Shown one piece after another: positions 1 to 48,243 of a stretch of DNA of 64,000 bases. The notes below the pieces were generated by a model. The model worked only from the letters and a program-made list of their open reading frames with translations, was not told the origin of the DNA and searched no databases. Each line of letters begins with the position of its first letter. The stretch's first letter is position 1. The translations under genes and the position numbers were made by a program. This DNA is from a virus. The DNA lies in the IMG/VR virus record IMGVR_UViG_3300002144_000620, positions 1 through 64,000 of that record; one strand, 5' to 3'.

Positions 1-1731
1 GGTAATAATGGTGGTAACGGTCTTAATAGAGTAAGTGGTGTTTCAGGTACTTCAGGGTCTAATGGATCTAACGGTGTTAATGGTAATGCTGGTAACAAAG
101 GCGTTTCAGCACTTTCTGGGTCTAGTGGGACATCAGGTTCGTCTGGTATTGCTGGTGCTATAGGTTCTTCAACTGTTAGCGGATCTTCAGGTTCATCAGG
201 TTCTAACGGTACTTCAGGTAATAACGGTGCTGCTGGTCTTAGTAGAGTAAGTGGTGTTTCAGGTTCGACTGGTACAAATGGATCTAATGGTGTTGCGGGT
301 AACTCGGGTAATTCTGGTTTATCAGGTGTTTCGGGATCAACTGGATCTTCAGGTTCTAATGGCGCTAATGGTAATAATGGTGCTAAGGGTGTTTCAGGGG
401 TAAGTGGTACTACTGGTTCTAACGGTTCTAATGGTAATAGTGGTATTGCTGGTAATAGTGGTGCTTCAGCACTTTCTGGATCTTCTGGTACTTCTGGATC
501 TTCAGGTAATAACGGTGGTAATGGTGCTAGTAGAGTAAGTGGTGTTTCAGGTTCGACTGGTACAAATGGTTCTAATGGTGTAACTGGAAATAATGGTAAT
601 AATGGTCTATCTGGTAACTCTGGTATTTCAGGTTTATCAGGTTCATCAGGTTCTAATGGTTCTTCAGGTAATAATGGTGGTAACGGTGCTAATAGAGTTA
701 GTGGTGTTTCAGGTACTTCAGGATCAAATGGATCTAACGGTGTTAATGGTAATGCAGGTAATAAAGGTGTTTCGGCATTAAGTGGTACCTCTGGATCTAA
801 CGGGTCTTCAGGTAATAACGGTGTTGCTGGAGCTAATAGAGTTTCTGCACTAAGTGGATCTTCAGGTTCATCAGGTACAGCTGGTTCTTCAGGTAATAAT
901 GGTGCTAATGGTCTTAGTAGAGTAAGTGGCGTATCTGGATCTTCAGGGTCTAATGGATCTAACGGTGTTAATGGTAATGCTGGTAACAAAGGTGTTTCGG
1001 GTGTGAGTGGTACTTCAGGATCAAATGGATCTAACGGTGTTAATGGTAATGCTGGTAACAAAGGTGTTTCGGGTGTGAGTGGTACTTCTGGATCTAACGG
1101 TGCTAATGGTAATAATGGTAACAGCGGTGTAAACGGTAATAGTGGTACATCGGGTAATGCAGGTGCTTCGGGTAACAACGGTGCTAACGGTAACTCAGGT
1201 AGAAACGGTACGAATGGTACGAATGGAGTTGCTGGTAACAGTGGTACATCGATAAATGGTACTTCTGGGATAAGTGGTGGTGTTTTTGCTACACCACTTA
1301 ATGCTTTTGTAAGAACTGTTAGTGCTAATCAGGTACAGAGTATTGATTATATGTATGTTAATACAGCTCAACAACGTGTTGGTATTAGAAATCCAACACC
1401 GAATTACACTTTAGATGTTACTGGTGATATATTTGCTAGTGGTAATATTATTGCTTTTTCAGATGAAAGAGTTAAGGATAATATCGTAACTATTTCTGAC
1501 GCACTTAATAAGGTTAGAAATTTAAGAGGTGTTAATTATACTAGAATCGAGGATGCGGATAAATCGTTAAGAATGGGTGTTATAGCACAGGAAGTTCAGA
1601 AAGTTATTCCTGAGGTTGTTGAGACACTTGAAAGTAACGGGTATTTAGCTGTAGCTTATGCTAATATGGTTGGTTTGTTAATTGAGGCAATAAAAGACCT
1701 AGACAAACAAGTTCAAGAATTAAAAAAATAA
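1..1731 (+). CDS. Long Gly-X-Y repeat fibre protein with C-terminal peptidase S74-type intramolecular chaperone (5' truncated by window edge)
   Basis: Frame 1 is open from base 1 (GNN GGN GLN RVS GVS GTS...) to TAA at 1731, so the ORF-track start at 1003 is internal. C-terminus has SDERVKDNI...LRGVNY...GVIAQEV...LLIEAIKDL, typical of S74 tail-fibre chaperones. Confidence 0.85.
   Translation, partial: GNNGGNGLNRVSGVSGTSGSNGSNGVNGNAGNKGVSALSGSSGTSGSSGIAGAIGSSTVSGSSGSSGSNGTSGNNGAAGLSRVSGVSGSTGTNGSNGVAGNSGNSGLSGVSGSTGSSGSNGANGNNGAKGVSGVSGTTGSNGSNGNSGIAGNSGASALSGSSGTSGSSGNNGGNGASRVSGVSGSTGTNGSNGVTGNNGNNGLSGNSGISGLSGSSGSNGSSGNNGGNGANRVSGVSGTSGSNGSNGVNGNAGNKGVSALSGTSGSNGSSGNNGVAGANRVSALSGSSGSSGTAGSSGNNGANGLSRVSGVSGSSGSNGSNGVNGNAGNKGVSGVSGTSGSNGSNGVNGNAGNKGVSGVSGTSGSNGANGNNGNSGVNGNSGTSGNAGASGNNGANGNSGRNGTNGTNGVAGNSGTSINGTSGISGGVFATPLNAFVRTVSANQVQSIDYMYVNTAQQRVGIRNPTPNYTLDVTGDIFASGNIIAFSDERVKDNIVTISDALNKVRNLRGVNYTRIEDADKSLRMGVIAQEVQKVIPEVVETLESNGYLAVAYANMVGLLIEAIKDLDKQVQELKK
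952..1088 (+). repeat. 72-bp-period tandem duplication inside the Gly-X-Y fibre gene
   Basis: aatggatctaacggtgttaatggtaatgctggtaacaaaggtgtttcgggtgtgagtggtacttc occurs at 952-1016 and 1024-1088. Related copies occur near 61 and 727. Confidence 0.85.
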
Positions 1732-1740
1732 CATAAAAAT

Positions 1741-1766
1741 AAAAGGGCTGATAAGGCCCTTTTTTA
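1741..1766. terminator. Bidirectional intrinsic terminator between convergent genes
   Basis: aaaagggc-tgataag-gccctttttt hairpin with A-tract and T-tract flanks. Confidence 0.7.
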
Positions 1767-2597
1767 TTTCTTTAAACTTAATAAAGATCTTAACGCATTG
1801 TTTTTTAGCGTTTGCTTGTCCACTACGATGTTTTCATCTATAAAATGATACTTTATGTTACCTAGAGAAGAAATGATCTCTAAGGCGATATTTAAGGCTT
1901 GTTTTGTGTATTTAAAACTAACATATTCACTACTTGAGTGCATATTGTAATATCCGACAGAATAATTGATACAAGAGAAGTCGTGAAAAGATCCTAGAAT
2001 ACTAACGTCAGTGTATGGGTGTCTACCTAGTTCGTAGTCGCCCATGTAATCTTCAAGGATTGGTTGAATTGTTTTGTAAAAATCACCAAATTCGTCAAAT
2101 AATTTAACACCGTTACAGTAATGTGTAACCCAATCAGATTCTGGTGCATCAAATTGTAATGTATATCCAACATTTTTAAAGAATGTTTCGTCTGAAAGTA
2201 TCGACCCAAAACACCCGTATTCTTCTGACACAAAAAAAACAACTTTAAGTACGTCAACACTTTCAAGTAATTCTAAACAAACGTAAACACCTGCTTTATT
2301 ATCGCCACCACAACCAGTCTTTTTTTTAGTACCTTTTTCGATGGCATATAAAAAATCGTCATTGTTATTATCTTCAATAATTTCCATATCAACTATCCCG
2401 TGAACTGAATCCGTATGTGCTACAACACATGGGTAGTTATCAGCAGTACCTTTCGTTACATATATGTTACCATATTGATCAATAACATATTTTAATTTAC
2501 TCTTACCGAGATATTTTACTATTTTAGCAATAAGATATTGTTCTTGACCACAGTATGTTGGTGTTGATAGTATATCTTTTAATTTTTCTTTACTCAT
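1764..2597 (-). CDS. M20/M28-type zinc metallopeptidase/hydrolase
   Basis: Metal-ligand motifs AHTDSV, GGDNKAG, SEEYG, FDAP and NMHS. Confidence 0.75.
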   Translation of the reverse strand: MSKEKLKDILSTPTYCGQEQYLIAKIVKYLGKSKLKYVIDQYGNIYVTKGTADNYPCVVAHTDSVHGIVDMEIIEDNNNDDFLYAIEKGTKKKTGCGGDNKAGVYVCLELLESVDVLKVVFFVSEEYGCFGSILSDETFFKNVGYTLQFDAPESDWVTHYCNGVKLFDEFGDFYKTIQPILEDYMGDYELGRHPYTDVSILGSFHDFSCINYSVGYYNMHSSSEYVSFKYTKQALNIALEIISSLGNIKYHFIDENIVVDKQTLKNNALRSLLSLKK

Positions 2598-2606
2598 TGG
2601 GTTTTT

Positions 2607-3866
2607 TTAGAAGAATTTACCAAATAGTCTTTTGGTTTCTTTTTTAACTGGTTCGATTGTTTTGTTTTTTCTGGATAGTGCTTTATCAACACTTTCTATT
2701 ACCTGATCAATAGTTATTGTTTTACTACACTCAAAGTGTCTATCGGTATCTTTGTGATCTGGGCACCATTCCCAATCACCTGGATTTAACCATTCTCTAT
2801 TAAAACAACCATTACAAGTATTTTCATTAGGTGTAAACACTCTTTCACAATCATTAAATTCTGATAAAGGTTTACTAAAACCAGATATTAAAACTGTGGG
2901 TGTTCCGATGGCCCATGATATCCAACTAAGACCACTACCTAAACCAATAAAGGCGTCAGCGTGTTTTATATCAATCATACGGTCATTTAAGTCTATGTGT
3001 CCACCAGTTTTATCAATCACACCTGTTAAAGTACCACCTAATTTAGAATCGTGCCAAGGGTCATTTAATTTTTCTGACGTAATCATAACTACTTTATAAC
3101 CTTTATCATTTAAATAATCAACAACTTTTTGCCACCCACCTGGTGTGTTCCAGTATTTAGCGTGAGCTGATGCGTGTGGTGCTATAACAACGTATTTACC
3201 ATCAAACCTACTAGGTTCATCAGGTACGCTTACAATAGGTTTTATCTCTTCATAATCTAACCCTAAGATGGAGCTAGATGTTTGTTGTAAAGGGAATTTT
3301 TTAAAATCTATGGGTATCTTTGTTGTAACAACTTTTTTATCATCATAAAACCAACCTATGTTATACATAGCGTATAGATTTTCAACAGGGGTACCTGGTT
3401 TGACAAATTTAATATTAGGGTATTTTGATTCAAACCAATCATTGTGGAAAGTAGAGCAAATCATTTCACAGTTATGTTTTTTCTGGAACTCATCAATATA
3501 TGGGAACCAAGCTAATGTGTCACCAACAGCTGAACTACCCATGTGTATGTAAACTCTTTTATTTTCAGCATTATAGTTATGTTCAAACACAATTTCATTT
3601 ATACTAAGATCGTAAATCTTAATGTTCCAATCAACAAAATACTCTAACGAACTTTTTGTCCACATGTTATTTGTTATTTCAGAACTGTGATGTATCTTAC
3701 CAGTTCTATTATCTGTAAATACAACTTTATATTTACCCTCTAACGGACCCTTTATTTCGCAAAAGGGTCCATTTGTGAAATGTGTTATAAATGAGTTGGT
3801 TGGTTCTTTATAACCTTTTCTTAAAATTTCTGTGTTATTGTACTCTTTAATTAATATTTCCTTCAT
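2607..3866 (-). CDS. TibC/Aah-like (autotransporter strand-loop-strand) O-heptosyltransferase, GT9-related
   Basis: SAVGDTLAWFPY, AKYWNTPGGW, FIGLGSGLSWISWAIG and ISGFS motifs, plus Cys cluster CNGCFN...WCPDHK...FECSKTIT matching the iron-finger region of TibC/Aah. Confidence 0.8.
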   Translation of the reverse strand: MKEILIKEYNNTEILRKGYKEPTNSFITHFTNGPFCEIKGPLEGKYKVVFTDNRTGKIHHSSEITNNMWTKSSLEYFVDWNIKIYDLSINEIVFEHNYNAENKRVYIHMGSSAVGDTLAWFPYIDEFQKKHNCEMICSTFHNDWFESKYPNIKFVKPGTPVENLYAMYNIGWFYDDKKVVTTKIPIDFKKFPLQQTSSSILGLDYEEIKPIVSVPDEPSRFDGKYVVIAPHASAHAKYWNTPGGWQKVVDYLNDKGYKVVMITSEKLNDPWHDSKLGGTLTGVIDKTGGHIDLNDRMIDIKHADAFIGLGSGLSWISWAIGTPTVLISGFSKPLSEFNDCERVFTPNENTCNGCFNREWLNPGDWEWCPDHKDTDRHFECSKTITIDQVIESVDKALSRKNKTIEPVKKETKRLFGKFF

Positions 3867-5484
3867 ATTTCTTATAAATAAAATTGTTTATGATTAATAG
3901 GTCAACAACATCATTATCTAGATGTGTAAACGCTTCGTTTGGATGACATACTATTGGTTCACCGTGTACGTTAAACGATGTGTTTAAAAGCACGGGTACT
4001 TGGGTTATCTTATTATATTCATCCAGTATCTTATGGAAAGTTGGGTTACTATCCTTAGTCACTATTTGTATCCTAGCTGTTTTATCAACTGGATGCACTA
4101 CCGTTGGTATCCTATCAACCCATTCAGGTTTGGTATCGTATAGCATTGTCATAAACTCAGCTGTGTATCTTGATTTAGTTACCTCAAATATATCACTAGC
4201 ATATTCACTCATAACAGCAGGTGCAAATGGCATAAAATCATTTCTTTGTAACTTATTATTGATTTTATCATATGTATCTGGGTTAGTTACCTCACCTATT
4301 ATACTTCTATTACCTAGTGCTCGTGGTCCGTGTTCGTATCTACCATTAAAAACACCTATGATTTTACCTTCGGATAAATATTTAGCGGCTATTTCTGGTG
4401 TGAATAACTCTCTACTGAATTTATTCATATCCCAATACCCCTCACCAACCTCTTGATCAGTAAAACTGGTACCTAAGTACATATCACTTAACTTAAAAGG
4501 TTTAAATTCAGGTGTGTTAATTTTATGTGTCATTATGGCACAACCTAAAGCACAACCTTCGTCACCCATTGGGGGTGCCACAAACATTTCGTCAACCCAA
4601 TATAATTCATTTAATACTTTATTAAGTTTTACGTTAGCAAAAATACCTCCAGCTACTGCTAGTTTTTTAATGTTTGGGTACCTGTTGTGTAGGTTGTTTA
4701 CTATAGTTAAAACCTTTTCTTCAAAAAATTTCTGTCCAGTATAAGCTATATCGGACTTGTCACCAAAATATACTTTTGAACCTAATTCTTTGTAATAAGC
4801 TGTATAGAAGTCTAAATAAAGTTTACCTAAAATCACATCGTCACTATCTTTTTTATTATCGTCATCGGTATGTATATCAATGACTTTAAAAGCTTCGTTT
4901 AATGCGTGATATGTTATTACGTCATGATTACCGTGAGCCGCCATACCAACAACCTTACCTTCGTCTTTAAGTCGTTTAAAACCTAAAAACTCGGTTATTA
5001 ATGAATATAGATGTCCGAATGATTTTTTCTCGATATCTATACCGTCAATAAAATTTAAATTACCCTCGCTACCAACAAAGTATTTAGCACTGTACTCACC
5101 ACCGCTAGCATCCATTGTTACAACTAACGTATCGTCTTGGAAATTACTCATATAATAAGCTGTTGCTGCATGAGAATCGTGATGGTCAATAAAAACAAAT
5201 TTTTCATCAGGAAATTCACCTAAGTTCATTTCCTCCCAAAACGATTTAACCTCTTTTTTGGGGTAATAACTAGTAATATAATCAAGTGAGTTTAAATCTA
5301 AACCAAACTTGTTAATAGCTATGTTTATTGAATCCATTGGGTATCTAAAATACCCGTCATAGAAATCTTGATATACCTTTACCCTTACGTGTCTTTCTTC
5401 TTCTAAGGAGAACACAATGTTACCATCCTCAACTAAGGATATACCGCAACAATGTTCACCAAATGACATTCCTAATATTTTCAT
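3847..5484 (-). CDS. O-carbamoyltransferase, NodU/CmcH/TobZ family
   Basis: EEERH, HHDSHAATAY, DASG, EGKVVGMAAHG, AGGIFANVKLN, GPRALGNRSI and LNTSFN motifs. Confidence 0.9.
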   Translation of the reverse strand: MKILGMSFGEHCCGISLVEDGNIVFSLEEERHVRVKVYQDFYDGYFRYPMDSINIAINKFGLDLNSLDYITSYYPKKEVKSFWEEMNLGEFPDEKFVFIDHHDSHAATAYYMSNFQDDTLVVTMDASGGEYSAKYFVGSEGNLNFIDGIDIEKKSFGHLYSLITEFLGFKRLKDEGKVVGMAAHGNHDVITYHALNEAFKVIDIHTDDDNKKDSDDVILGKLYLDFYTAYYKELGSKVYFGDKSDIAYTGQKFFEEKVLTIVNNLHNRYPNIKKLAVAGGIFANVKLNKVLNELYWVDEMFVAPPMGDEGCALGCAIMTHKINTPEFKPFKLSDMYLGTSFTDQEVGEGYWDMNKFSRELFTPEIAAKYLSEGKIIGVFNGRYEHGPRALGNRSIIGEVTNPDTYDKINNKLQRNDFMPFAPAVMSEYASDIFEVTKSRYTAEFMTMLYDTKPEWVDRIPTVVHPVDKTARIQIVTKDSNPTFHKILDEYNKITQVPVLLNTSFNVHGEPIVCHPNEAFTHLDNDVVDLLIINNFIYKKYEGNIN

Positions 5485-6431
5485 TAAATTGATAATGGTT
5501 TTTGATAAACTTTTAATAATTCTACTGATCTATTGTACCAGGATAGTGATTTAGCATGATTTATAGCCTTTGTTCGGTAATTATCGTAATCACTGATAAT
5601 ATCATCCAAACCATTAACTAAAGCTAAAACATTTCTATTAGCTCTCCACATACCACTAAAATCCGTCTCCATCTCAATCCAACCATTAATAGGTAGACCG
5701 CATGCAGCAGCTTCTAATATAGTTAGATTAGGGTGACCAGCCTCTAACTCAGATGGGTGCATAAATATTGTATGTCTTTGATATAAATCTAATAACCCAT
5801 CCTGATTAGGTTCCCACTCTAAATTTAATTTAGGGTAACCGTAAACCCATGGGTTTTCTTTTAAGAAGTTTTCATTATTTCTTGGCCCAGCTATTGTAAT
5901 TGGTAAGTTTTTGGCCATAGCAGCTTTAATAGCGAATCCAAACCCTTTTCTATCGTAACCATCCATACCAGCCATACCGTTATTCGCTAAGCAAAGTAAT
6001 CTATGTTCTTTAGGTGTTTCCGATGGTTTAAAAAAGTCTGTGTTAACACCATGTGAGAAATAAACTGCTTTAGGTGTATTGAAGTATGGTACTAAAAATC
6101 TACCTGGCATTAGAGATACTTCAGAGTTCTCAATGGCTAATAAATTTTGTTTAAATACCTGAGAATCTTTACCATAGTAATATGCGTGATGATCATGTAG
6201 TTGGTATATGTATTTAACACCTCTTTCATGTAGGAAAATAGCTAGGTTAGCCATATGTACGTGTACTACATCGTAATCACCTGGTTTTATCTCATTAGCA
6301 TACTTTATATCAACAGTATGACCTAATTTTCTTAAGTTTTGGGTAAACTCCCAAACTATTTTTTCTACAGCACCCCAACTTGGTGGTGGTACTGGTATCC
6401 CGCATCCAGGGTGTACTTGACATATTTTCAT
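5484..6431 (-). CDS. Glycosyltransferase family 4 (GT-B)
   Basis: PPPSWGAVEK N-terminus, HGVNTDFF, RKG, and HPSELEAGHPNLTILEAAACGLP (EX7E-like motif). Confidence 0.85.
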   Translation of the reverse strand: MKICQVHPGCGIPVPPPSWGAVEKIVWEFTQNLRKLGHTVDIKYANEIKPGDYDVVHVHMANLAIFLHERGVKYIYQLHDHHAYYYGKDSQVFKQNLLAIENSEVSLMPGRFLVPYFNTPKAVYFSHGVNTDFFKPSETPKEHRLLCLANNGMAGMDGYDRKGFGFAIKAAMAKNLPITIAGPRNNENFLKENPWVYGYPKLNLEWEPNQDGLLDLYQRHTIFMHPSELEAGHPNLTILEAAACGLPINGWIEMETDFSGMWRANRNVLALVNGLDDIISDYDNYRTKAINHAKSLSWYNRSVELLKVYQKPLSI

Positions 6432-6461
6432 ATTATTACTATATTCTTTTACTTATGTAAA

Positions 6462-9209
6462 TTATCCCGCAAAAATTTGTGGATAATCATTGTCTTTGCT
6501 TTTATCCTTTTTATCAACAATTGAATAACCTGGTAGGTGTTTAGTATAAACTTTATCAGCCATTGCACCGTGTAATCCAGCAACCTTAGTCATCCAAAGA
6601 TCAAAAGCTTCCCATTTGCATGTCTCAAACTTACTAACAAAGTTAGGTAATTTTTCTCTATTAATCAAATAAGATTGGGCTGGTGCAAAAATACTTAGGT
6701 TTAAAAGTAAATCTTCTCTTTGACCACTATATCTTTCCGCACAGTAATTACCAAAACCAACCATATCAATATTCTCTTCTTTAGCTAATTTTGACCATCT
6801 AATTAAATTATCGTACAACTCATCATATGGGGAATCTATAATAACATCACCCTCAAACACCAAAATAAAATCAAATTCATTGTTGCTTTCCATGGTTATA
6901 CCATTTTTATGTGCTAAGAAGCACCCGTAATGACCTGGGGATAATTTAAAGTAACCTGGTTCCATCGCAACGTCTTTAGGTCTGTGGCACGTATCTAATG
7001 GGGGTAATTCCTTGTATATAACATTTACCTTTTCATAGTACTCGATATTATCGAAATCACTAGCAAAATCTTTTAATGATTTAGATGAAATTAACTCTTT
7101 AGGATTTGTATCTGGTTCCGTAACTAAATGAACTATTCTAATCTTAGGTTTTTTATTACCAGATATAATTTTAACCTCATCAATTTTATTATGTGTGAAT
7201 TTACCGTTATTAGGTAATATATTGATTAGATAGTTATTATCAACTATTATAGTTTTATTTTCTATCAATTTGTTGGAATGCATATCAAAACTAGTGTACT
7301 CGATTGAGTATTTACTGTTTTCAGATAGGTTGTATTCGACAAGTTGGTATGAACTACATTTACCAGAAACTGATACATCATAGTTTTTTATTAAATCACC
7401 ATCTTTATTTATTTTAATATTAACTATACGACTATCAACTGAATTGGATATTTGTAGATATACTACAAATGTGTTCGGTATGTTACTAGGTAATATAGTA
7501 AAATATTCTACCATAGAATAATCTTTGTGTGTTAAATTAGTATTAACATCGGCAATAAAATTATTTTCTGGCACTAATTCAATTTGATCTAACTTATCTT
7601 TAAAAGCAAAATACATTAAATTCTCGTAACCGTTGCTAAATGAACCCCATTTTAGTCTTAAATTTTCATAATCGTTAGCAGAATTAATTCTATCAACGGT
7701 GTCTAAATAAAATTCTGGACGAATTCCCATAAAGTATGTTACAACCGAGTGACCCTCGGCATTGTCTGGCATATCACCAAAATAAGCTGACTTACTGTTT
7801 AGTTTTTGTGATATATTATTTAAATATTCTGTATTAGGGTTTAATATATAATCATAATTTAAAAAATATACTTTGCTAATACCTAATTCTTTAGCTAAGG
7901 CAGCTCCATTATAATAATTAGTGTAACATGTTGGTCCGTGATATATGTCATTACCTTCACCTCTTAAATTAACAAAAGAATGGAAATCACCTTCACTATA
8001 CCTACTTTGAGAATAAAAAGTGTGTTTAGTTAAAATATTATTTTTATCATACACAAAATAATCAACCAATTCTTGTAATTCAGTTGATATTGGTAAGTGT
8101 GATGTTAATATAACTTTTCTACCAGTGGCTTTAGCTGACATAATACACTCTATGGTTGTATCGTAAGCACTCTTTGTTTTTGGATAGGTTGATATTATAA
8201 TAGCTTCATTACTAGGGTCAATAACCTCATTAATAGTTGTTGCAGGGGTTTTGTTTAGGGTTTCACTTATTAATTCACAATTTTTATCAAAATTAGTGAA
8301 GTCTAGGTAACCAATATTTTCAAATTTATCAAAATAATCTAAATAAACACCTAAGTTGTAGATTAATATTGGTAGGTTCCATGAAATAGCCTCACGAATA
8401 ACTAGTGGCATTGTTTCTTTATCGTTATTTGAACCTCTTGATGTAAATAAGAATAGGTCCATGGCTCCATAAAAACGTTCTACATCATTTCTTTCACCAT
8501 GCCATATAACATTTTTTGGTTTATTGATCATTAAAGGTTCCCAGTAATAAGCGAAATTACCCGATTGGTTACCAACAGTGTGGAAAACGTGATCTGGTAA
8601 ACTCCTAGCGTATTCAAAAAACTCAGCCTGATTTTTTCTAGGTGTAAATAAACCAACGTGTAGAATATGTTTTTTTGTTGGGTCTAAACCTAAGTCAATT
8701 AAAGATTTTTCTCTATTGGGTCTATTTTGGTATTCGATTGGGTATTCTACCAGTACTTTAGGTATTTCATTTATACTTTCAAATAATTTTATTTGCCAAT
8801 CAGATACAAACATAAATTTATCTGGAAAGAATTTTTTTTGTGTTGCATCGTATGATGAATCGTGTGATGTTTCGACAATTACGTAATTTCTATCGTCTTT
8901 GTAAAGATTTTTTGCGACATTAAAATCCATGAAATACTCTGGTATTTCTTCTAAGTGTACAATATCTGGTTTAACTCTATTAACAATATCAATGAGTTCC
9001 ATTTTATTCTCGTGTAGTGTGAAAAATCTATCAGGATCAACCATAGATGTTATCCTGTCACGCTGCACCACTAACACGCCTCCAGTATGATTTGACCATT
9101 CTATTACATAGATCTCAAACGTATCCTTAAGTAATTCTATTTTTTTCGTTAGATACTGCGGTAAACCACCTGTAGATAGGTGCGGTGCGATATATAATAA
9201 TTTCTTCAT
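6462..9209 (-). CDS. Multidomain glycosyltransferase: N-terminal GT4, central unknown domain, C-terminal GT25-like domain
   Basis: N-terminal HLSTGGLPQY, VGLFTPRKNQ and ETMPLVIREA. C-terminal GHYGCFLAH, ILVFEGDV and AQSYLIN. Confidence 0.75.
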   Translation of the reverse strand: MKKLLYIAPHLSTGGLPQYLTKKIELLKDTFEIYVIEWSNHTGGVLVVQRDRITSMVDPDRFFTLHENKMELIDIVNRVKPDIVHLEEIPEYFMDFNVAKNLYKDDRNYVIVETSHDSSYDATQKKFFPDKFMFVSDWQIKLFESINEIPKVLVEYPIEYQNRPNREKSLIDLGLDPTKKHILHVGLFTPRKNQAEFFEYARSLPDHVFHTVGNQSGNFAYYWEPLMINKPKNVIWHGERNDVERFYGAMDLFLFTSRGSNNDKETMPLVIREAISWNLPILIYNLGVYLDYFDKFENIGYLDFTNFDKNCELISETLNKTPATTINEVIDPSNEAIIISTYPKTKSAYDTTIECIMSAKATGRKVILTSHLPISTELQELVDYFVYDKNNILTKHTFYSQSRYSEGDFHSFVNLRGEGNDIYHGPTCYTNYYNGAALAKELGISKVYFLNYDYILNPNTEYLNNISQKLNSKSAYFGDMPDNAEGHSVVTYFMGIRPEFYLDTVDRINSANDYENLRLKWGSFSNGYENLMYFAFKDKLDQIELVPENNFIADVNTNLTHKDYSMVEYFTILPSNIPNTFVVYLQISNSVDSRIVNIKINKDGDLIKNYDVSVSGKCSSYQLVEYNLSENSKYSIEYTSFDMHSNKLIENKTIIVDNNYLINILPNNGKFTHNKIDEVKIISGNKKPKIRIVHLVTEPDTNPKELISSKSLKDFASDFDNIEYYEKVNVIYKELPPLDTCHRPKDVAMEPGYFKLSPGHYGCFLAHKNGITMESNNEFDFILVFEGDVIIDSPYDELYDNLIRWSKLAKEENIDMVGFGNYCAERYSGQREDLLLNLSIFAPAQSYLINREKLPNFVSKFETCKWEAFDLWMTKVAGLHGAMADKVYTKHLPGYSIVDKKDKSKDNDYPQIFAG

Positions 9210-9230
9210 AATGTAACTATATTGTTGTTA

Positions 9231-9238
9231 CAAATATA
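9231..9238 (-). promoter_or_regulatory. Bacteroidota-type -7 promoter element (TATATTTG) upstream of the glycosylation operon
   Basis: Minus strand reads TATATTTG about 22 nt upstream of the 9209 start and just downstream of the capsid terminator. The -33 element is imperfectly spaced. Confidence 0.45.
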
Positions 9239-9262
9239 AACATATTATTATGGAATATAAAC

Positions 9263-9293
9263 AAAAAAGGGTGAGAAAATTTTCCCACCCTTT
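9263..9293 (-). terminator. Intrinsic terminator after the major capsid gene
   Basis: Minus strand aaagggtgggaaaattttctcacccttttttg. Confidence 0.75.
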
Positions 9294-9324
9294 AATTATT
9301 TGGTATAAAACCCTAGATAAAATA

Positions 9325-10902
9325 TTATCTGAAACCTCCGATACCGAAGCTAACGATATTTTTACACTTGATAACACCATAGAAACGGTTATTAACCATT
9401 TTCTTAGCGTAACGAGTCATAATACCTTTAACTGGTGCGAAAGTGAACGGGTTGTACATTGTTGGAGTTAATTGCATCGGCACGTATGGTGCGTAGATGT
9501 AACCAGTATCCAATAATGAAGTACCTTTGTGTCCCATTAAGATTGTGTCAGCTGGGAAGTAAGGATCACGGTATACTTGGTATCTTCCACCCAATGAACC
9601 GATTCTTTCGATACCCATGTTGAATTTATCTTGCTCTGGAGCTGCATTAGATACGTGGAAGTACTCTAAATCGTCCAAAATAGCTGAAACCTCAGCAGAT
9701 ACAACGATCCAGTTAGCACCACCTCTTAATGTAGCTTTGTGAATTTGTGCAGAAACTTGGTTAACCGCAGTGATTAACGTTTGGTTCCACTCTTTTTGAG
9801 TATAGAAACCATTTGATGCAGAAATACCACCAGTATTAACTCTAGATCCAGAGTAATCCCATGTCATTCTCCATGCAGCACCTCTACGTAAATCTCTTAA
9901 GATTTCACGATCGATTTCAGCAGCAACTTGCTCAGATAATAAAGCTGTTAATTCAGCTTCAGCATCGATGTTGTGGAATGCACTAACATCTTGAGCTAAT
10001 TCTGGAGACCATTGAGCTCTTAATTTTCTCTCGATAACAGAAACTGTTACAGATTTAAGTTCAAAAGAAACTTCACCCATTTCATCACTGTACTCTAAAG
10101 ATTCGTATTCTTTAGCAGTTGCAGTAATACCTGATAAAGGTAAAGCTACTGTAGTACTGTTGTTAACTATAGCAACATAAACGTCACCGTTAGCTTCCAT
10201 AACTGAATTACCATATTTTTGAGCTGGTAAATAGAAATCGAAATCAGCGCTAGCTGTAGCAGAAAGTACAGATAGTGTTGACATAATTTCTTCAGAATTT
10301 TCCCAGTTTGAGATACTTGAAACGAAATTCATTTTTACGATTGAAGTAGTTCCAACTGGTACAGAAGTACCAACTAAAGCAGCGTAACCATTACCATTAG
10401 CGTCAAATTCATAAAGATTTGCAACAGTAACTGTTGCAGTTAGAGATGTAGCAGCACCTTTAGAGTTGTCATAAAGACCATTTTCTCCGTAGAATGCGTC
10501 ATACAAGTTAGGGCTAACTGAAGTTCCTGTTGGATCGATACCAGCAGAACCAGCACCAAATGCTGAATTCTCCAATTTCGGGATAAAGTAGAACAATTTA
10601 CCAATTGGTAAGTTCAACGCTTGTACCGAAACGATTTCGTTAGCTAATAATTTTGAGAATACTCTTCTCACGATTGGGAATACCACAGTTTCGAAAGAAC
10701 CTTCGTTACCTAATGCAACTGATTCATTAAGCATGTAAGATGCTTGATTTTCAAATAATTGTGCGATATTCTCTTTTTTGTGACCACCTAGACCTTCTAA
10801 AAGTCCAAGTCCGTCCCATCTGTTAATTACGTCAGTACGTACCTCTTTTAAATGATTAAGGCCTACGTTACCAACTTTTCCTGATTCTAATAATGCTCCC
10901 AT
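9325..10902 (-). CDS. Major capsid protein (T4 gp23-like)
   Basis: FPIVRRVF..LLANEIVSVQ, RKLRAQWSPELAQD, DAEAELTALLSEQVAAEIDREIL, YAPYVP and GIMTRY motifs. Confidence 0.96.
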   Translation of the reverse strand: MGALLESGKVGNVGLNHLKEVRTDVINRWDGLGLLEGLGGHKKENIAQLFENQASYMLNESVALGNEGSFETVVFPIVRRVFSKLLANEIVSVQALNLPIGKLFYFIPKLENSAFGAGSAGIDPTGTSVSPNLYDAFYGENGLYDNSKGAATSLTATVTVANLYEFDANGNGYAALVGTSVPVGTTSIVKMNFVSSISNWENSEEIMSTLSVLSATASADFDFYLPAQKYGNSVMEANGDVYVAIVNNSTTVALPLSGITATAKEYESLEYSDEMGEVSFELKSVTVSVIERKLRAQWSPELAQDVSAFHNIDAEAELTALLSEQVAAEIDREILRDLRRGAAWRMTWDYSGSRVNTGGISASNGFYTQKEWNQTLITAVNQVSAQIHKATLRGGANWIVVSAEVSAILDDLEYFHVSNAAPEQDKFNMGIERIGSLGGRYQVYRDPYFPADTILMGHKGTSLLDTGYIYAPYVPMQLTPTMYNPFTFAPVKGIMTRYAKKMVNNRFYGVIKCKNIVSFGIGGFR

Positions 10903-23335: not shown

Positions 23336-24760
23336 TTACTTTAATTTACTTACTAGCTGAAACTCAAGTTCATTTTCGTATATATTTGTTTCACCATTTG
23401 TTTCAATTTTTATATCGATAAAATAATCCTGTGGTATTAACCACGTAGTATCTATAGTGAAATAATTATTATTCGTTGTTTTATTAACCCTTTCCCATTC
23501 GGTTATAGGTATTACGGTTGTACCTTGTTTTGTATACATTCTGTAATAAAGTGTATTACTAACCTCGTATTCAGAAACCGTATACGGTTTTCTTAGTAGT
23601 ACATTAACTTTTCGTTTTTCACCTTGCGTTAGCTTTTCTTCTCTTCTAATACCACTAACTGATAAACCATATCTAGTATCGTCCAATACTTCCGTATTGA
23701 AGGTGAAGTATTTGTCAGCATCAATTGGTACGAATCTCATATCAACTTTAGGTCTTTGTGACCCATTATAAATTATAGCATCCCATATGTCGTTGTATTC
23801 TGAATAGCTAGTGAAAATATCTTCACTACCATAAACATTAACGTAATAAATACCCTTAGTTTTTTGATATACTGTTAGGTCAACACCATTTATAGAACAT
23901 GTTGGTAAGGAATCTAAGTTCTGTAATTTACCACCAATTATTGAGGTAAAAAATAATTTATTCGCTTTACCTAAATAAAAACTATTTCTATCGTCCTCGA
24001 TATAATCATCGTATTTTGTTTCAATGAAAGGTTCAAAAAATGTTTGGGTGTGTCTAGTAAATAAACCCAGTGCAAAAGTTTTTGGGTCTGATGACGTATC
24101 TATATTTTCTATAGCTTCACTGTATTTAATACAAAACCCCATATATTCAGTCGTACCAGTTGTTGTACCAGTTGTTGTACCAGTTGTCGTACCAGTTGTT
24201 GTACCAGTTGTTATATAATTATTAACAAAGTCCGTTATGTCCATCTCAATATCCTCATTACCTTTATCTAAGTGAGCTATAGCTATAGGTGTGCTACTAC
24301 TAGGTATTATACCTGGTGTAGTAAAAGTATCAAGAAGGGTACTGTTAAACCAGTTTGATGGCTCTGCAATATAATCCCTATTCTCTGGTGTTGATATTAC
24401 ACTTTCTTCAAAATCATATCCAGTACCTTCATCCCATTTTTCATTAATAACGTGTAATTCTAAATCTACAGAATTTGGTCTATAACTGTTGCCTAACATT
24501 AGGTTGTTATTAACACTTAGAAAAGATTTAATATCAAAACTAGATGTATTTTTAATTTTTAGTGTATGCGTTAAAGTACCATTAGTATTTATAGTTTTAT
24601 CATTAACTAACGATTTTATTTCATCGAAAGAGCAATAAAACAAAAATCTACTGGTTTTTGAACCAAAATATAGTTCAGACACTTGGTTTCTACCAGTGTT
24701 TATGTCACTATCTTTAATGATAGTATTGTTTTTATCGAAGTATGTTCTATAGATCCCCAT
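23336..24760 (-). CDS. Putative virion structural (baseplate/tail) protein
   Basis: Beta-rich composition, lies among structural genes, has a late motif upstream and an internal (TTGT)n linker. Confidence 0.55.
   Translation of the reverse strand: MGIYRTYFDKNNTIIKDSDINTGRNQVSELYFGSKTSRFLFYCSFDEIKSLVNDKTINTNGTLTHTLKIKNTSSFDIKSFLSVNNNLMLGNSYRPNSVDLELHVINEKWDEGTGYDFEESVISTPENRDYIAEPSNWFNSTLLDTFTTPGIIPSSSTPIAIAHLDKGNEDIEMDITDFVNNYITTGTTTGTTTGTTTGTTTGTTEYMGFCIKYSEAIENIDTSSDPKTFALGLFTRHTQTFFEPFIETKYDDYIEDDRNSFYLGKANKLFFTSIIGGKLQNLDSLPTCSINGVDLTVYQKTKGIYYVNVYGSEDIFTSYSEYNDIWDAIIYNGSQRPKVDMRFVPIDADKYFTFNTEVLDDTRYGLSVSGIRREEKLTQGEKRKVNVLLRKPYTVSEYEVSNTLYYRMYTKQGTTVIPITEWERVNKTTNNNYFTIDTTWLIPQDYFIDIKIETNGETNIYENELEFQLVSKLK
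24150..24212 (-). repeat. 12-bp tandem repeat encoding (TTGT)x5
   Basis: gtaccagttgtt units; the protein reads ITTGTTTGTTTGTTTGTTTGTTE. Confidence 0.85.
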
Positions 24761-33305: not shown

Positions 33306-34151
33306 TTACTTTCTCAAACTTTTCATTTTCGATAACTCACCACCAAATAATTCTCTTGGTCCTTCTGGTATTAATAAAGATTCTTCAATATCTCGTATAC
33401 CTTTAACCAATTTAAATAAACCAGATGGTTCAATAGATGCTGAGTGATCTGACCCCCACATACCTCTGTCTAATGTTATATGACGCTCTACCCATGTCAC
33501 ACCCATCGGTATTGTAGCAAAAGTAGTTACTAAACCGTATTCGTGTCCACTATAACCTATTTCTTTTTCGGTGTAATGGTTTTTTAACCATGTTATATAA
33601 TTTAAGTTTAATTCACTTACTGGGCATGGGTATGTTGAGTTTGTGTGCATTATAACGTCAGGGTTACACGAGTCTATACATAAAGTTACTTCATCTTCAT
33701 TACTCATACCCGTTGAGACCATTAGGTAGTCAGCTTTATCTCTAGCGTATTTACATAGTTCGATATCGGTTATTAGTGCTGATGGTATCTTCATAGCGAT
33801 TCCTAGATCACTTTTATACCTCATCATAAAGTCTACTGACGTTTTGTCCCAAACGGATGCAAACCAATTAATACCAATCTCTTTGCAGAATCTGTCTATC
33901 TCATCATATTCAATCTCACCAAACTCAGTTTTCCATTTGTATTCTAAGTAAGTTATCTCACCCCACGGTGTTTGTCTCATCTTATTTTTTTGTTCTTCTG
34001 GTACACAGATATCTGGGTTTCTTTTTTGAAACTTAACGTAATTACAGCCAGCTGCTTTAGCCACTAATATTAATTGTTTGGCAATATTAATGTCACCGTT
34101 GTGATTAATACCTATTTCACCTATTATTTTAACACTATTTTTTTTATTCAT
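33306..34151 (-). CDS. neuB: N-acetylneuraminate/nonulosonate synthase (NeuB family, lacking the C-terminal AFP-like domain)
   Basis: IIGEIGINHNG, VKFQKR, KIPSA, STGM, HTNSTYP, GYSGHE and ERHITLDR..WGSDH motifs. Confidence 0.92.
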   Translation of the reverse strand: MNKKNSVKIIGEIGINHNGDINIAKQLILVAKAAGCNYVKFQKRNPDICVPEEQKNKMRQTPWGEITYLEYKWKTEFGEIEYDEIDRFCKEIGINWFASVWDKTSVDFMMRYKSDLGIAMKIPSALITDIELCKYARDKADYLMVSTGMSNEDEVTLCIDSCNPDVIMHTNSTYPCPVSELNLNYITWLKNHYTEKEIGYSGHEYGLVTTFATIPMGVTWVERHITLDRGMWGSDHSASIEPSGLFKLVKGIRDIEESLLIPEGPRELFGGELSKMKSLRK

Positions 34152-34761
34152 TGTAATATTTTTTATTTAAAAGTATATAATCATTTTGTTTAACATTTAT
34201 TGATGATGATTTAAATATAGAGTAAAAACCTTTATTGTAAATATATTCTAAAACCTCTGGTTCTAATGTTTGTCCGTTAAAATATTCAACCTCTTCAGTT
34301 TCAATTTGTAAGACTTTAATGTTTTCCAATAAATTACCAAAGCTTTCTAGAGCCTCTAATGTGGCGCCTTCAACGTCTATTTTAACTAAGTCTGGTGTTG
34401 GTGAGTTATTTTTATTTATAAATGTATCCATTCTTTTGCATTCTAACTCAACCAATACTTCTTTAGTTTTAGATAAATTTTGTTCAAAAATACTATGTAT
34501 ACCATTTTTTTCTTTATGAAAAAAATTAGTTTTACCATCGTAATTACGTATAATCATGTTATGGAAATTAACTTTATCCGTATCTTTACCTAATAAGAAT
34601 TTTTCGTAATTATCAGGTAAACCTTCAAACCCAATAACTTTACAGTTGAATAGTTCCGATAATAGAAAACTGTCAAATCCGTTAAGGCAACCTATATCGT
34701 AAATTAATTTTATTTCAGAAGTGTTTATTTTTTTATCTAAAACACTTTTTATTGTTTGCAT
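34144..34761 (-). CDS. FkbM-family SAM-dependent methyltransferase
   Basis: YDIGCLNG, FEG and LVKIDVEGA motifs. Start moved to ATG 34761 to avoid overlap with the upstream gene. Confidence 0.8.
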   Translation of the reverse strand: MQTIKSVLDKKINTSEIKLIYDIGCLNGFDSFLLSELFNCKVIGFEGLPDNYEKFLLGKDTDKVNFHNMIIRNYDGKTNFFHKEKNGIHSIFEQNLSKTKEVLVELECKRMDTFINKNNSPTPDLVKIDVEGATLEALESFGNLLENIKVLQIETEEVEYFNGQTLEPEVLEYIYNKGFYSIFKSSSINVKQNDYILLNKKYYNE

Positions 34762-34763
34762 CT

Positions 34764-41349: not shown

Positions 41350-42096
41350 TTATTTGGGTGTTACAACTCCTCGTCTACTTACAACATCAGCTGATTTTTT
41401 GTTAGCGTCCATTATGGATAAACCTATATTGCCAGTAATGTAATAAGCTGATATAAATGCCGCTGTAAATGTATCCCCAGCACCACTGACATCAATTGTC
41501 TCTTGTGGATTTGGTGATGGATAATGGTTATTTTTATAACTAGCACCATTTTGACCTAGAGTTACGATGATGCCTTCATGATTTAAACTATCGTTATTCA
41601 TGAACTCATTTTCGTTTAGTTTAATAAAACTAAAATCTTTAATAATTTCATCCGTTAATTTTCTTTTACTATCTAATATAGATAACTTTGAATTACTAGA
41701 TATTTTTTTTAAATCAATGTCCGATAAAAAACCTTTGTTGTAATCACTTACAATAACAATATCCGAATCATTTATTACTTTATTGATATTATTATCATAT
41801 TTAAAAGGGGTTATAGATCTTTCACCATCATCAACACGTAAAAACATGTGATTAGATTTAGATTCAACATATCTAGTTTTTGTTATATTTTCTATCTGAG
41901 TAATTGTAGATACGTTTGATTCGTGTAGTATTACTCTGATATTAGCCTCTGTATTACCAGCCATACCGTTATTTTCGATTATTTTAATAGGGTTCAGAAC
42001 TGGAACTGGTGCTTCTGGTGATAATCTGTTTACATCGCAATAGATAAATCTATCTATACAAGTTTCACCAATAACTAAGACGTTAACGTTATTCAT
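41350..42096 (-). CDS. PfkB-family kinase, HldE/RfaE heptose-7-phosphate kinase-like
   Basis: RLSPEAPVPV, TKTR, SDYNKG and DVSGAGDTF motifs characteristic of the HldE kinase domain. Confidence 0.82.
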   Translation of the reverse strand: MNNVNVLVIGETCIDRFIYCDVNRLSPEAPVPVLNPIKIIENNGMAGNTEANIRVILHESNVSTITQIENITKTRYVESKSNHMFLRVDDGERSITPFKYDNNINKVINDSDIVIVSDYNKGFLSDIDLKKISSNSKLSILDSKRKLTDEIIKDFSFIKLNENEFMNNDSLNHEGIIVTLGQNGASYKNNHYPSPNPQETIDVSGAGDTFTAAFISAYYITGNIGLSIMDANKKSADVVSRRGVVTPK

Positions 42097-48193: not shown

Positions 48194-48211
48194 TATATTG
48201 TTTATTTTGGA

Positions 48212-48243
48212 CAAATATAGTATAAGCTTAGTTAAAAAACAAA
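48212..48243 (-). promoter_or_regulatory. Bacteroidota-type promoter for the DNA polymerase
   Basis: TTTG-N20-TATATTTG, a perfect -33/-7 consensus. Confidence 0.65.

Follow-up and report, generated by a model that had tools for sequence, protein, structure and literature searches.

The locus examined here raises the question of what a set of glycosyltransferase (GT) genes, placed between a phage capsid gene and a collagen-like fibre gene, serves to modify. The window, that is, the whole 64,000-nucleotide stretch that we analysed (positions 1 to 64,000 of IMG/VR record IMGVR_UViG_3300002144_000620), belongs to a 154-kb contig. A first-pass annotation had suggested that the phage O-glycosylates its own fibre or capsid and then extends and carbamoylates the glycan. 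Each gene that it named was recovered at its position, and the features that matter are as follows.

1..1731, plus strand: collagen-like fibre, C-terminal 576 aa (Pfam Collagen 7e-51, Peptidase_S74 7.7e-16)
1741..1763, both strands: hairpin between two convergent stop codons (9 and 8 pairs, T-runs on each strand)
1764..2597, minus strand: short MH-clan (M20/M28/M42-like) peptidase-like protein (PHROG 4191 8.5e-38; weak NCBIfam/Pfam matches)
2607..3866, minus strand: BAHT-family (TibC/Aah-type) protein O-glycosyltransferase (TIGR04414, 4rap, fold, residues)
3847..5484, minus strand: O-carbamoyltransferase, NodU/TobZ/GdmN type (Carbam_trans_N 1.8e-40, Carbam_trans_C 5.4e-59)
5484..6431, minus strand: GT4-type glycosyltransferase (Glycos_transf_1 2.2e-6)
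6462..9209, minus strand: 915-aa multidomain glycosyltransferase (N-terminal GT4, unassigned middle, weak GT25-like C-terminus)
9266..9293, minus strand: strong terminator-like hairpin lying between capsid and GT genes, just past the former (12 pairs, T-rich tail)
9325..10902, minus strand: gp23-type major capsid protein (Pfam Gp23 1.2e-72)
41350..42096, minus strand: HldE-domain-I-like PfkB sugar kinase, 248 aa (rfaE_dom_I, the best NCBIfam family, 98 bits)

The ORF at 2607-3866 is a bona fide BAHT by HMM, residue and fold tests. It scores 321.6 bits against TIGR04414 (hepto_Aah_TibC; cut-off 200), matches TibC in the PDB (4rap) at E 1e-57 and is 33-37% identical to TibC/Aah. Its AlphaFold model (pLDDT 90.7) superposes on 4RAP with a TM of 0.79-0.87 and an rmsd of 2.5 A, as against a TM of 0.44-0.59 on WaaC/WaaF. 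Residues D116, K237, R296 and W315 correspond to TibC D110, K230, R286 and W305, and all four iron-finger cysteines are kept (C351/354/368/380, TibC C339/342/358/370). TibC positions D110, K230 and W305, together with the four Cys, do not vary in the 119 distinct phage homologues compared; the R286 position, Arg in the window protein, is hydrophobic in about half. The window enzyme differs from TibC at the stereoselectivity residue P300, which is Gly, and at the thumb tip, whose hydrophobic character the TibC dodecamer depends on; here the tip is not conserved and reads Lys-Leu. The TibC/Aah identity first assigned to this gene is thus upheld by HMM, fold comparison, catalytic Asp and Cys ligands, and the protein is probably a heptosyltransferase, which we propose as the priming enzyme. 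Since TibC, which modifies Ser and not Thr, accepts short synthetic peptides (PMC4358343), an unfolded repeat is a plausible substrate.

The proposed acceptor of the sugar is the fibre at 1-1731, which is open at the contig start, its 5' end lying off the contig. We counted 131 G-X-Y triplets, with Ser in 45% and Asn in 37% of the Y positions, in line with the well over 100 triplets with mostly Ser or Asn in Y noted at first; there are just 4 Pro. The protein matches PHROG tail-fibre families (best 1e-56), and its C-terminal part, after the triplets, is an S74-type intramolecular chaperone. More fibre genes sit at the opposite end of the contig.

Linkage between cassette and fibre extends well beyond the window. 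In ~160 related viral loci and several gene orders, the GT-GT4-BAHT cassette adjoins genes for giant fibres built of G-[T/S]-S triplet repeats; the co-occurrence of cassette and G-X-S fibre in related phages, proposed earlier as a check, is seen. The order is capsid, GT cassette and a fibre converging on the cassette in lineage A; fibre(s), GT, GT4, FkbM, BAHT and sheath in lineage B; and giant S/T-rich protein, GT-methyltransferase, BAHT, adenylyltransferase and kinase in lineage C. Additional orders place the fibre downstream. Where at least 6 kb is available on each side (64 loci), a repeat ORF (at least 20 G-X-Y triplets) is present in 44. A classical G-X-Y ORF is absent within 21 kb in ~16 of 39 locus clusters, most of which have a giant S/T-rich non-collagen protein. 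Among capsid relatives of at most 68% identity, cassette and fibre are both absent downstream of the capsid gene. The adjacency of cassette and fibre may be partly a clustering of variable late genes.

The BAHT gene and the two genes at 5484-6431 and 6462-9209 form a conserved three-GT core. The GT4 enzyme at 5484-6431 is barely over the Glycos_transf_1 cut-off (27.7 against 26.4 bits), and a gene of this type is a conserved neighbour of BAHT in both lineage A and lineage B; in LR756501 the two are fused. Nearly every phage locus keeps the N-terminal part of the 6462-9209 protein next to BAHT. This protein had been described as GT4 plus GT25-like; the GT4 domain is clear (Glycos_transf_1 4.1e-12), but the GT25 match is weak and under the Pfam cut-off (E 0.0016), with GT25 found in 17% of the members of its Atlas cluster. 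The carbamoyltransferase, matched by TobZ, GdmN and NovN in the PDB at about 1e-46 to 1e-52, accompanies the cassette in lineage A only. The same holds for the peptidase at 1764-2597, whose Atlas clusters are widespread across phages generally. The 'hydrolase' of the presumed operon does exist, but it belongs to a peptidase family common in phages, and we saw no sign of its membership in the glycosylation system.

A similar pairing is found in cells. The closest BAHT homologues in free-living Proteobacteria have, at a distance of 100-1500 bp, genes for small secreted proteins or lipoproteins that carry the repeat seen in the phage fibres. Of 37 bacterial loci, 26 have a G-X-Y Ser/Thr ORF no farther than 1.5 kb from BAHT, while the remaining 503 kb hold only 6 such ORFs, a roughly 20-fold enrichment near BAHT. 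Phage fibres and bacterial partners share a signature in which X is Thr (34-52%) or Ser (22-36%) and Y is Ser (50-69%), with Pro at no more than 2.5%. In the tree, the repeat-linked BAHTs (89 rows) split from autotransporter-linked BAHTs with a branch support of 100.

We favour, with a probability of about 0.68, a phage-encoded system that glycosylates the virion fibre, by O-glycosylation of fibre Ser followed by extension and O-carbamoylation; this reading held in each computational test applied. Late in infection, the BAHT enzyme would move a sugar from an ADP-activated donor, most likely ADP-glycero-manno-heptose, to the hydroxyl of the Y-position Ser of G-[T/S/N/V]-S triplets in still-unassembled collagen-like fibre chains, encoded at 1-1731 and at the opposite contig end. 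The GT4 enzyme and the multidomain GT would extend this sugar, and the TobZ/NodU-type enzyme would O-carbamoylate the glycan at a sugar hydroxyl; the fibre would trimerise afterwards, aided by its S74 chaperone. The kinase at 41350 would feed donor synthesis.

As to the donor, it is possible, if clearly the lesser prospect, that the fibre O-glycosyltransferase uses another ADP- or NDP-sugar made by phage kinase and nucleotidyltransferase; such a change of donor would leave fibre glycosylation as the main reading. Related phage-like contigs are binned mainly in Bacteroidota MAGs, and HldE-I or GmhA above cut-off was found in 0 of 61 Flavobacteriaceae genomes sampled; heptose is doubtful as donor if the host is one of the Bacteroidota. 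The Bacteroidota are candidate hosts; their promoter motif shows no enrichment (7 matches against 3.8 expected). The 154-kb contig holds no adenylyltransferase, GmhA or GmhB, and five phage contigs hold no SIS isomerase. Phage kinases score 98-123 bits against an HldE cut-off of 345, and the adenylyltransferase 98 against 181.5, yet rfaE_dom_I and rfaE_dom_II are their best-scoring families by a wide margin. Although R286 varies and P300 is Gly, D110, K230 and W305 are invariant, and W305 of TibC contacts the heptose O4 hydroxyl; Proteobacteria with the BAHT-repeat pair also carry true HldE. The HldE-like kinase first proposed as donor supplier is indeed a homologue of BAHT-linked phage kinases (40% identity, E 2e-54), but at 98 bits it falls far under the HldE cut-off and no adenylyltransferase accompanies it in the contig. 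Those kinases, together with an rfaE_dom_II-like (HldE-II-like) adenylyltransferase, follow the BAHT gene in locus L160 and some 25 further loci, and in two phage lineages HldE-type genes for both come directly after it.

It is unlikely that the cassette modifies another virion protein (capsid, decoration protein or tail tube) instead of, or besides, the fibre. The lineage A cassette does lie directly downstream of the gp23 gene, as the first-pass annotation had it, among head genes; and in mycobacteriophages GT genes beside structural genes act on subunits of the capsid and tail tube, as far as the citing article describes them (Freeman et al. 2023, cited in PMC12619734). But capsid adjacency is confined to lineage A and is not kept in lineage B, lineage C or the other gene orders. 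Terminators follow the capsid gene and separate the convergent units, the 1741-1763 hairpin being terminator-like in both directions; because the strong hairpin at 9293-9266 stands between them, capsid and GT genes are adjacent but not necessarily one transcript. In addition, bacterial clade members pair with repeat proteins without phage structural genes, and long G-x-S repeats occur in no further ORF of the 154-kb contig. The capsid gene is late structural context and not a conserved partner of the cassette. Of the two targets first envisaged, linkage supports the fibre, and comparative evidence narrows the target to it.

Less likely still is a remodelling of the host surface (LPS, capsule or host G-T-S lipoproteins), for instance for superinfection exclusion or receptor masking, with an accessory-gene hot spot accounting for the nearby fibre. 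Enzymes of the GT4, GT25-like and GT9 families typically serve LPS and polysaccharide synthesis, the same phage carries a nonulosonic-acid cluster, and the bacterial partners of the clade are secreted proteins or lipoproteins. However, a BAHT-specific N-terminal beta-barrel and iron finger, both missing from LPS heptosyltransferases, are present in the enzyme, and its fold is that of TibC (TM ~0.8) rather than WaaC/WaaF. All lineages place it in a strictly late structural context, the cassette and the fibre are acquired or lost jointly, and the phages' own fibres hold hundreds of copies of the motif common to the bacterial partners. Hypermodification of phage DNA by the GTs and carbamoyltransferase is very improbable: phage GTs acting on hydroxymethylated bases are known and a dUTPase/dCTP-deaminase-like gene lies beside a second GT cluster, but the contig has no thymidylate-synthase-like hydroxymethylase and no Tet/JBP family match (a weak test, its control search likewise giving none), BAHT enzymes are protein Ser transferases, and the bacterial repeat-protein linkage has no DNA-modification context.

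The closest known system is TibC/Aah (TIGR04414; 4RAP, 4RB4; PMC4358343), which shares the curated HMM family, fold, catalytic Asp, donor-contact Lys/Arg/Trp and four-Cys iron finger, as well as a neighbouring, highly repetitive Ser-rich surface protein with many acceptor sites. That partner is an autotransporter beta-helix, whereas phages pair the enzyme with a G-[T/S]-S triplet-repeat fibre free of Pro. Unlike TibC/Aah, the window enzyme is virus-encoded, its repeat-linked relatives form a separate clade whose bacterial members pair with a small secreted protein or lipoprotein, and two more GTs and a carbamoyl- or methyltransferase accompany the phage enzyme, which points to an oligosaccharide and not to single heptoses. 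BclA of Bacillus and BclA3/SgtA of Clostridioides difficile likewise combine a collagen-like G-X-Y surface filament with a dedicated GT nearby; their hydroxy-amino-acid positions are O-glycosylated, and the sugars are thought to aid hydration and stability of a hydroxyproline-free triple helix (PMC8968730, PMC7157674). In these cellular systems Thr fills Y and Pro fills X, whereas the window fibre has Ser/Asn in Y and repeats free of Pro; their enzymes are of families other than GT9/BAHT, and their sugars are rhamnose/anthrose or GlcNAc-based. The mycobacteriophages, so far as PMC12619734 reports them, also keep GT genes within the structural module and modify their own virion proteins, but the sites are C-terminal, on capsid and tail-tube subunits, with different enzyme families and in Actinobacteria. 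Mimivirus, too, encodes collagen-like fibres and their glycosylation enzymes independently of host machinery; it is a eukaryotic virus that glycosylates hydroxylysine, encodes the hydroxylation as well and uses unrelated enzymes (PMC8968730; review PMC9614988).

We found no published description of such a phage fibre glycosylation system in the literature. New here are the linkage of cassette and fibre across viruses, the bacterial repeat partners, the separate clade and the BAHT-linked HldE-type genes. A glycan on the fibre may in turn affect fibre stability, host recognition or shielding.

Within the 153,961-bp IMG/VR contig of which the window forms the first 64 kb, six minus-strand genes at the left end converge on a fibre ORF on the plus strand. 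The capsid gene, glycosyltransferase (GT) cassette, carbamoyltransferase, TibC/Aah-like enzyme and convergent fibre named in the first-pass annotation were all found as described:

1-1731 (+): collagen-like fibre, open 5' end at base 1, 576 residues (Pfam Collagen 7e-51, Peptidase_S74 7.7e-16)
1741-1763: two-sided hairpin between the convergent stop codons
1764-2597 (-): short M20/M28/M42-like peptidase
2607-3866 (-): 419-aa GT9 protein of the TibC/Aah-type autotransporter heptosyltransferase family (TIGR04414; BAHT)
3847-5484 (-): O-carbamoyltransferase (Carbam_trans_N 1.8e-40, Carbam_trans_C 5.4e-59)
5484-6431 (-): GT4 enzyme
6462-9209 (-): large GT, 915 aa; its GT4 domain is clear, and its C-terminus is weakly GT25-like
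9293-9266 (-): strong terminator-like hairpin 3' of the capsid gene
9325-10902 (-): gp23-type capsid protein

These genes had been taken for an operon adjoining the capsid gene. The adjacency holds, but the strong hairpin directly after the capsid gene separates it from the GT genes, which therefore need not share its transcript. The operon's 'hydrolase' is present, as a member of a peptidase family common in phages generally. In the carbamoyltransferase, the Kae1-like Carbam_trans_N and YrdC-like Carbam_trans_C domains both scored above cut-off, placing it in the NodU/CmcH/TobZ type, and the structures of GdmN, NovN and TobZ match it at 1e-46 to 1e-52. Neither the BAHT gene nor the large GT has a PHROGs family, and a PDB sequence search returned no match for the peptidase or the large GT. 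Several copies of a 'late motif', TATTTATA, lie just 5' of late-gene starts, that of the BAHT gene included; the motif was not enriched overall (26 against 22 expected) and was not relied on. Further into the window, 45092-48214 (-) encodes a family-B DNA polymerase with a DUF7831 insertion (1.1e-32) between its exonuclease and polymerase parts.

The BAHT protein scored 321.6 bits against the curated TIGR04414 cut-off of 200, covering profile positions 21-373 of 374, and was matched by TibC in the PDB at E 1e-57. Residue roles in TibC (PMC4358343) were transferred to it by alignment. The catalytic base Asp110 corresponds to D116, and the donor contacts Thr226, Lys230, Arg286 and Trp305 to S233 (a Thr-to-Ser change), K237, R296 and W315. 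Window residues C351, C354, C368 and C380 align with C339, C342, C358 and C370 of the TibC 1Fe-0S iron finger, and are predicted to form an iron finger here. Across 119 distinct phage homologues, the equivalents of Asp110, Lys230 and Trp305 and the four Cys are invariant, while the Arg286 equivalent is retained in 61. The TibC stereoselectivity residue Pro300 is Gly in the window protein; the thumb tip, F265/V266 in TibC (hydrophobic, dodecamer assembly), is K275-L276 in the window and Y-M in other phage homologues.

An AlphaFold model built with 29 homologues (pLDDT 90.7) aligned to TibC 4RAP with a TM of 0.79-0.87 and an rmsd of 2.5 A over about 390 columns, versus a TM of only 0.44-0.59 for the LPS heptosyltransferases WaaC/WaaF. 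The predicted fold is that of the TibC protomer, with an N-terminal beta-barrel, a GT-B catalytic domain and inserted modules. Both the profile and the structure comparison proposed earlier thus uphold the assignment to a TibC/Aah-like enzyme, as do the retained catalytic Asp and intact iron-finger cysteines, and we conclude that 2607-3866 belongs to this family. TibC modifies Ser and not Thr, and accepts short synthetic peptides (PMC4358343), which fits action on unfolded G-x-S triplets.

The convergent fibre contains 131 G-X-Y triplets and 9 Pfam Collagen stretches. Ser occupies 45% and Asn 37% of its Y positions, the X position takes Ser, Asn, Val or Thr, and the 576 residues include only 4 Pro. 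The long uninterrupted G-X-Y tract and the C-terminal Peptidase_S74 intramolecular chaperone identify it as a collagen-like S74 fibre, and many PHROG tail-fibre families match the ORF. It lacks the bacterial-collagen composition of Pro in X and Thr or charged residues in Y; in bacterial collagens, X is 19-31% Pro and Y is 32-48% Thr (PMC8968730). Because a G-X-Y chain without Pro or charge would by itself make a poor triple helix, and because BclA glycosylation is thought to aid hydration (PMC8968730), glycan-dependent stability of the fibre is a reasonable guess. In the head-gene region, a 474-aa protein that matched no PHROGs family (23336-24760, minus strand) carries a (Thr-Thr-Gly-Thr)5 linker, which we rejected as a second acceptor as too short and without a triplet repeat.

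Both ends of the contig lie inside collagen-like fibre ORFs, 1-1731 and 152260-153960. The 3' end of the latter runs off the contig at its last base; this ORF carries GTSGID-type repeats and is just preceded by a second, complete fibre (149325-152237; 971 aa, 203 triplets, Y = Asp or Ser). With both ends in fibre ORFs, the genome is probably circularly permuted and its assembly interrupted within a single fibre gene, and the CheckV completeness of 52% may therefore be too low.

Conserved gene neighbourhood served as our test of the substrate. A scan of viral contigs with the window enzyme returned 217 relatives, and a further scan that used the TibC domain from Mel-JY01, a Microcystis phage, as its seed added 347 contigs; in metagenomes, more than 5,000 homologues were found. 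The best 80 of the 217 relatives were fetched and displayed two gene orders. Lineage A, the order of the window (74-79% identity), runs capsid, large GT, GT4, carbamoyltransferase, BAHT, peptidase and then the convergent fibre. In lineage B (60-66% identity), giant collagen-like genes, one or two in number, come first; large GT, GT4, often FkbM methyltransferase, and BAHT follow, ahead of the genes for tail sheath, tube and baseplate. The Mel-JY01-seeded set showed additional orders, with the fibre upstream, downstream on the same strand, or convergent. Lineage C consists of a 1,900-2,000-aa S/T-rich protein, a GT-methyltransferase, BAHT and two small genes. Of the 64 loci flanked by 6 kb or more on either side, 44 contained a repeat ORF of at least 20 G-X-Y triplets, in line with the co-occurrence of the BAHT gene with G-X-S fibres suggested for related phages; the rest of the 64 were mostly lineage C. 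Canonical BAHTs are partnered by an adjacent autotransporter with strand-loop-strand repeats, a pairing that we saw in two control loci (L216 and L218). In contrast, neither the window nor about 160 phage loci contained an autotransporter partner, and the G-X-Y fibre stands in its place.

Where the capsid was at least 83% identical to that of the window, the cassette and the convergent fibre both lay 3' of the capsid gene, and where identity was 68% or lower, neither occurred within the 5 to 10 kb fetched downstream. Since they are jointly present in close relatives and jointly absent from distant ones, we conclude that cassette and fibre behave as one module, placed differently in different lineages. 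The core of N-terminal GT4 domain, GT4 and BAHT persists even as fusions. The 735-kb huge phage LR756501 encodes a 725-aa GT4-TibC fusion (L091:14014-16191) preceded by a 1,140-aa large-GT homologue. Mel-JY01 encodes a 1,226-aa fusion of a GT4 domain and a C-terminal TibC-type domain (L001:4750-8430; WWT39291), which was deposited as 'methyltransferase FkbM' and adjoins an 18%-Ser 'structural protein'. Conservation of the trio down to 38-45% BAHT identity argues that the GT4-type pair and BAHT act in one common pathway.

Some lineage B loci depart from this layout. In L045:2-2293 and L082:1-4290, the adjoining fibre is non-collagen and G/S/T/N-rich with an S74 chaperone at its end; its repeat weakly matches a beta-roll antifreeze repeat and is nearer in style to the beta-helical substrates of canonical BAHTs. 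In L037:482-2986, L056:211-2735 and L047:3-1249, the adjacent fibre is replaced by an additional GT2-like gene and a pair of small ORFs (about 200 aa each) immediately 5' of the large GT.

A scan of species-representative genomes yielded 43 BAHT loci. Those also carrying a large GT or GT4 look like phage contigs placed in MAGs, several of them Bacteroidota; the others are ordinary chromosomal contexts (Methylobacter, Methylomicrobium, Polaromonas, Arenicellales and others) in which the BAHT gene stands without other GTs. Near these chromosomal genes, at 10-200 bp and at most 1.5 kb, are one or two small ORFs (100-330 aa) whose products have a signal peptide or lipobox and contain extended repeats, for example GTSGTSGTAGTSG. 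A partner repeat ORF lay within 1.5 kb of BAHT in 26 of 37 loci, with only 6 in the other 503 kb of fetched flank, an enrichment of roughly 20-fold. In free-living Proteobacteria, partner proteins include:

L174:8941-9804: repeat protein of Methylobacter luteus
L190:11169-12065 (-): repeat protein at a bacterial locus
L177:11118-11435 (-): repeat protein at a bacterial locus
L205:11184-11807 (-) and 8528-8992 (-): two repeat proteins at one bacterial locus

Partner proteins show long (G-T/S-S/A)n runs, with about 35 consecutive GTS in L190. The bacterial BAHT and its repeat protein form a candidate enzyme-substrate pair, apparently undescribed. All four sets (lineages A and B, the Mel-JY01-seeded viral set and the bacteria) share one repeat signature, with Thr or Ser at X, Ser at 50-69% of Y positions and Asn next in frequency there, and at most 2.5% Pro. 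In a FastTree phylogeny of 93 BAHT sequences, a branch with 100 support (supports being SH-like only) divides the autotransporter-linked enzymes, such as Aah, whose neighbour is AIDA-I, and a Gluconobacter enzyme encoded beside an outer-membrane protein, from all repeat-linked ones. The bacterial repeat-linked groups are nested among phage sequences in this tree.

The donor sugar was approached through HldE-like genes in the window and in related loci:

41350-42096 (-): 248-aa HldE-kinase-domain-like kinase, best family rfaE_dom_I at 98 bits
L160:11071-12205: split HldE-like pair directly 3' of a phage BAHT gene, also in L102, L112, L118, L128, L147, L156-L163 and other viral loci

The window kinase scores far below the rfaE_dom_I cut-off of 345 bits, and this family beats ribokinase by about 65 bits. 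In lineage C and a second lineage (L102, L104, L112, L118, L151, L153), two HldE-like genes follow BAHT at 0-400 bp. The product of the first, 129 aa long, scored best with rfaE_dom_II (98 bits, below the cut-off of 181.5); that of the second is a 250-aa rfaE_dom_I-like kinase (123 bits). The window kinase is 40% identical (E 2e-54) to a post-BAHT phage kinase, which gives real backing to the first-pass suggestion that it contributes to the donor. True HldE is present in proteobacterial genomes with the paired BAHT system. Together, the HldE-like genes 3' of BAHT, the homologous window kinase and the proteobacterial HldE support ADP-activated heptose as the donor. The conserved donor contacts and the HldE-like neighbours in relatives are consistent with heptose transfer from ADP-heptose to Ser. 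A complete ADP-heptose pathway in the phage was rejected, as searches for the adenylyltransferase and isomerase families (rfaE_dom_II, CTP_transf_like, GmhA, SIS/SIS_2) gave no match in the 154-kb contig, which is possibly incomplete; no GmhA-like isomerase was found in five whole viral records (G000, the contig of the window, to G004).

Binning of related phage contigs gives the only hint, a weak one, of a Bacteroidota host. Cassette-bearing phage-like contigs (L173, L192, L193, L203, L208, L210) are binned in Bacteroidota MAGs of Winogradskyella, Bacteroides, Chitinophaga and Saprospirales, and a 246-aa kinase frame of phage type lies on a contig (C132) of the same Winogradskyella MAG. The Bacteroidota-type promoter TTTG-N17-21-TAnnTTTG occurred 7 times against 3.8 expected, a count equalled in 6 of 100 shuffles and not significant, and the window contains no tRNA genes. 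Neither HldE-I nor GmhA scored above cut-off in any of 61 sampled Flavobacteriaceae genomes, and a Flavobacteriaceae or other Bacteroidota host probably could not supply the ADP-heptose pathway.

In the mechanism that we propose, BAHT would act in the cytoplasm late in infection, priming the serines at Y positions of fibre chains as they are made, and the sugar would then be extended by the two GT4-type enzymes. A hydroxyl would be capped, by the carbamoyltransferase in lineage A and by FkbM or another methyltransferase in lineages B and C, with trimerisation then driven by the S74 chaperone. The capsid or another virion protein is a possible target of the same enzymes, though this would leave the conserved repeat partner unexplained. 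Remodelling of the host surface by the cassette does not fit, being at odds with both the BAHT-specific fold and the behaviour of cassette and fibre as a module. Hypermodification of phage DNA by the GTs and carbamoyltransferase has no support and was ruled out mainly on enzyme family, the contig also having no thymidylate-synthase-like hydroxymethylase and no Tet/JBP match, the latter a weak test in that a control search also matched nowhere.

A separate nonulosonic-acid cluster in the window was considered as part of the fibre system:

33306-39187 (-): NeuB (3e-57), FkbM, two GT29-like proteins with sialyltransferase motifs, a CMP-sugar synthetase-like protein and a double GT2

Three related contigs with the BAHT cassette gave no NeuB match, so that any link of this cluster to fibre glycosylation is at most a lineage-specific addition.

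O-glycosylation by the phage of its own fibre serines is our main reading. To our knowledge, the only role described for BAHT enzymes until now is the modification of autotransporter adhesins in Proteobacteria, and as far as we could find, virion protein glycosylation in tailed phages is documented essentially for mycobacteriophages. Literature searches on TibC in phages, heptosyltransferases with collagen-like proteins, phage fibre O-glycosylation and phage HldE returned nothing relevant. The enzyme family is known, and by analogy the concept of a glycosylated collagen or a glycosylated virion is shared with BclA-type collagens and mycobacteriophages; new elements are the proposed class of substrate, the occurrence in a virus, the elaboration by several enzymes and the HldE-type genes linked to it. 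Our joint reading, to which we assign a probability of about 0.5, is that a second, larger and older BAHT branch has Pro-free G-[T/S]-S as its cognate substrate. Bacteria would use it on small secreted proteins and lipoproteins, and very abundant aquatic myophages, possibly of Bacteroidota, on fibres hundreds to thousands of residues in length, most of whose triplets would carry a sugar. Extension and carbamoyl or methyl capping would follow, here perhaps with nonulosonic acid, and part of the ADP-heptose pathway would be brought into hosts that lack it.

If this is true, the fibre would form a collagen stabilised by its glycans, or a mucin-like bottle-brush, and would determine adsorption or shield the virion. 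This could account for the function of collagen-like repeats without proline or charge pairs, and phage HldE-type genes may serve to make the virion's own sugar donor, a possible new auxiliary metabolism. For a virulence-associated enzyme family, G-[T/S]-S would be a new substrate class and a possible glyco-engineering tag; as it is simple and portable, the idea is testable with peptides. There would then be a second route of virion glycosylation, not related to that of mycobacteriophages and apparently far commoner, which would change the view of fibre-based host recognition, environmental stability and antigenicity in aquatic phages.
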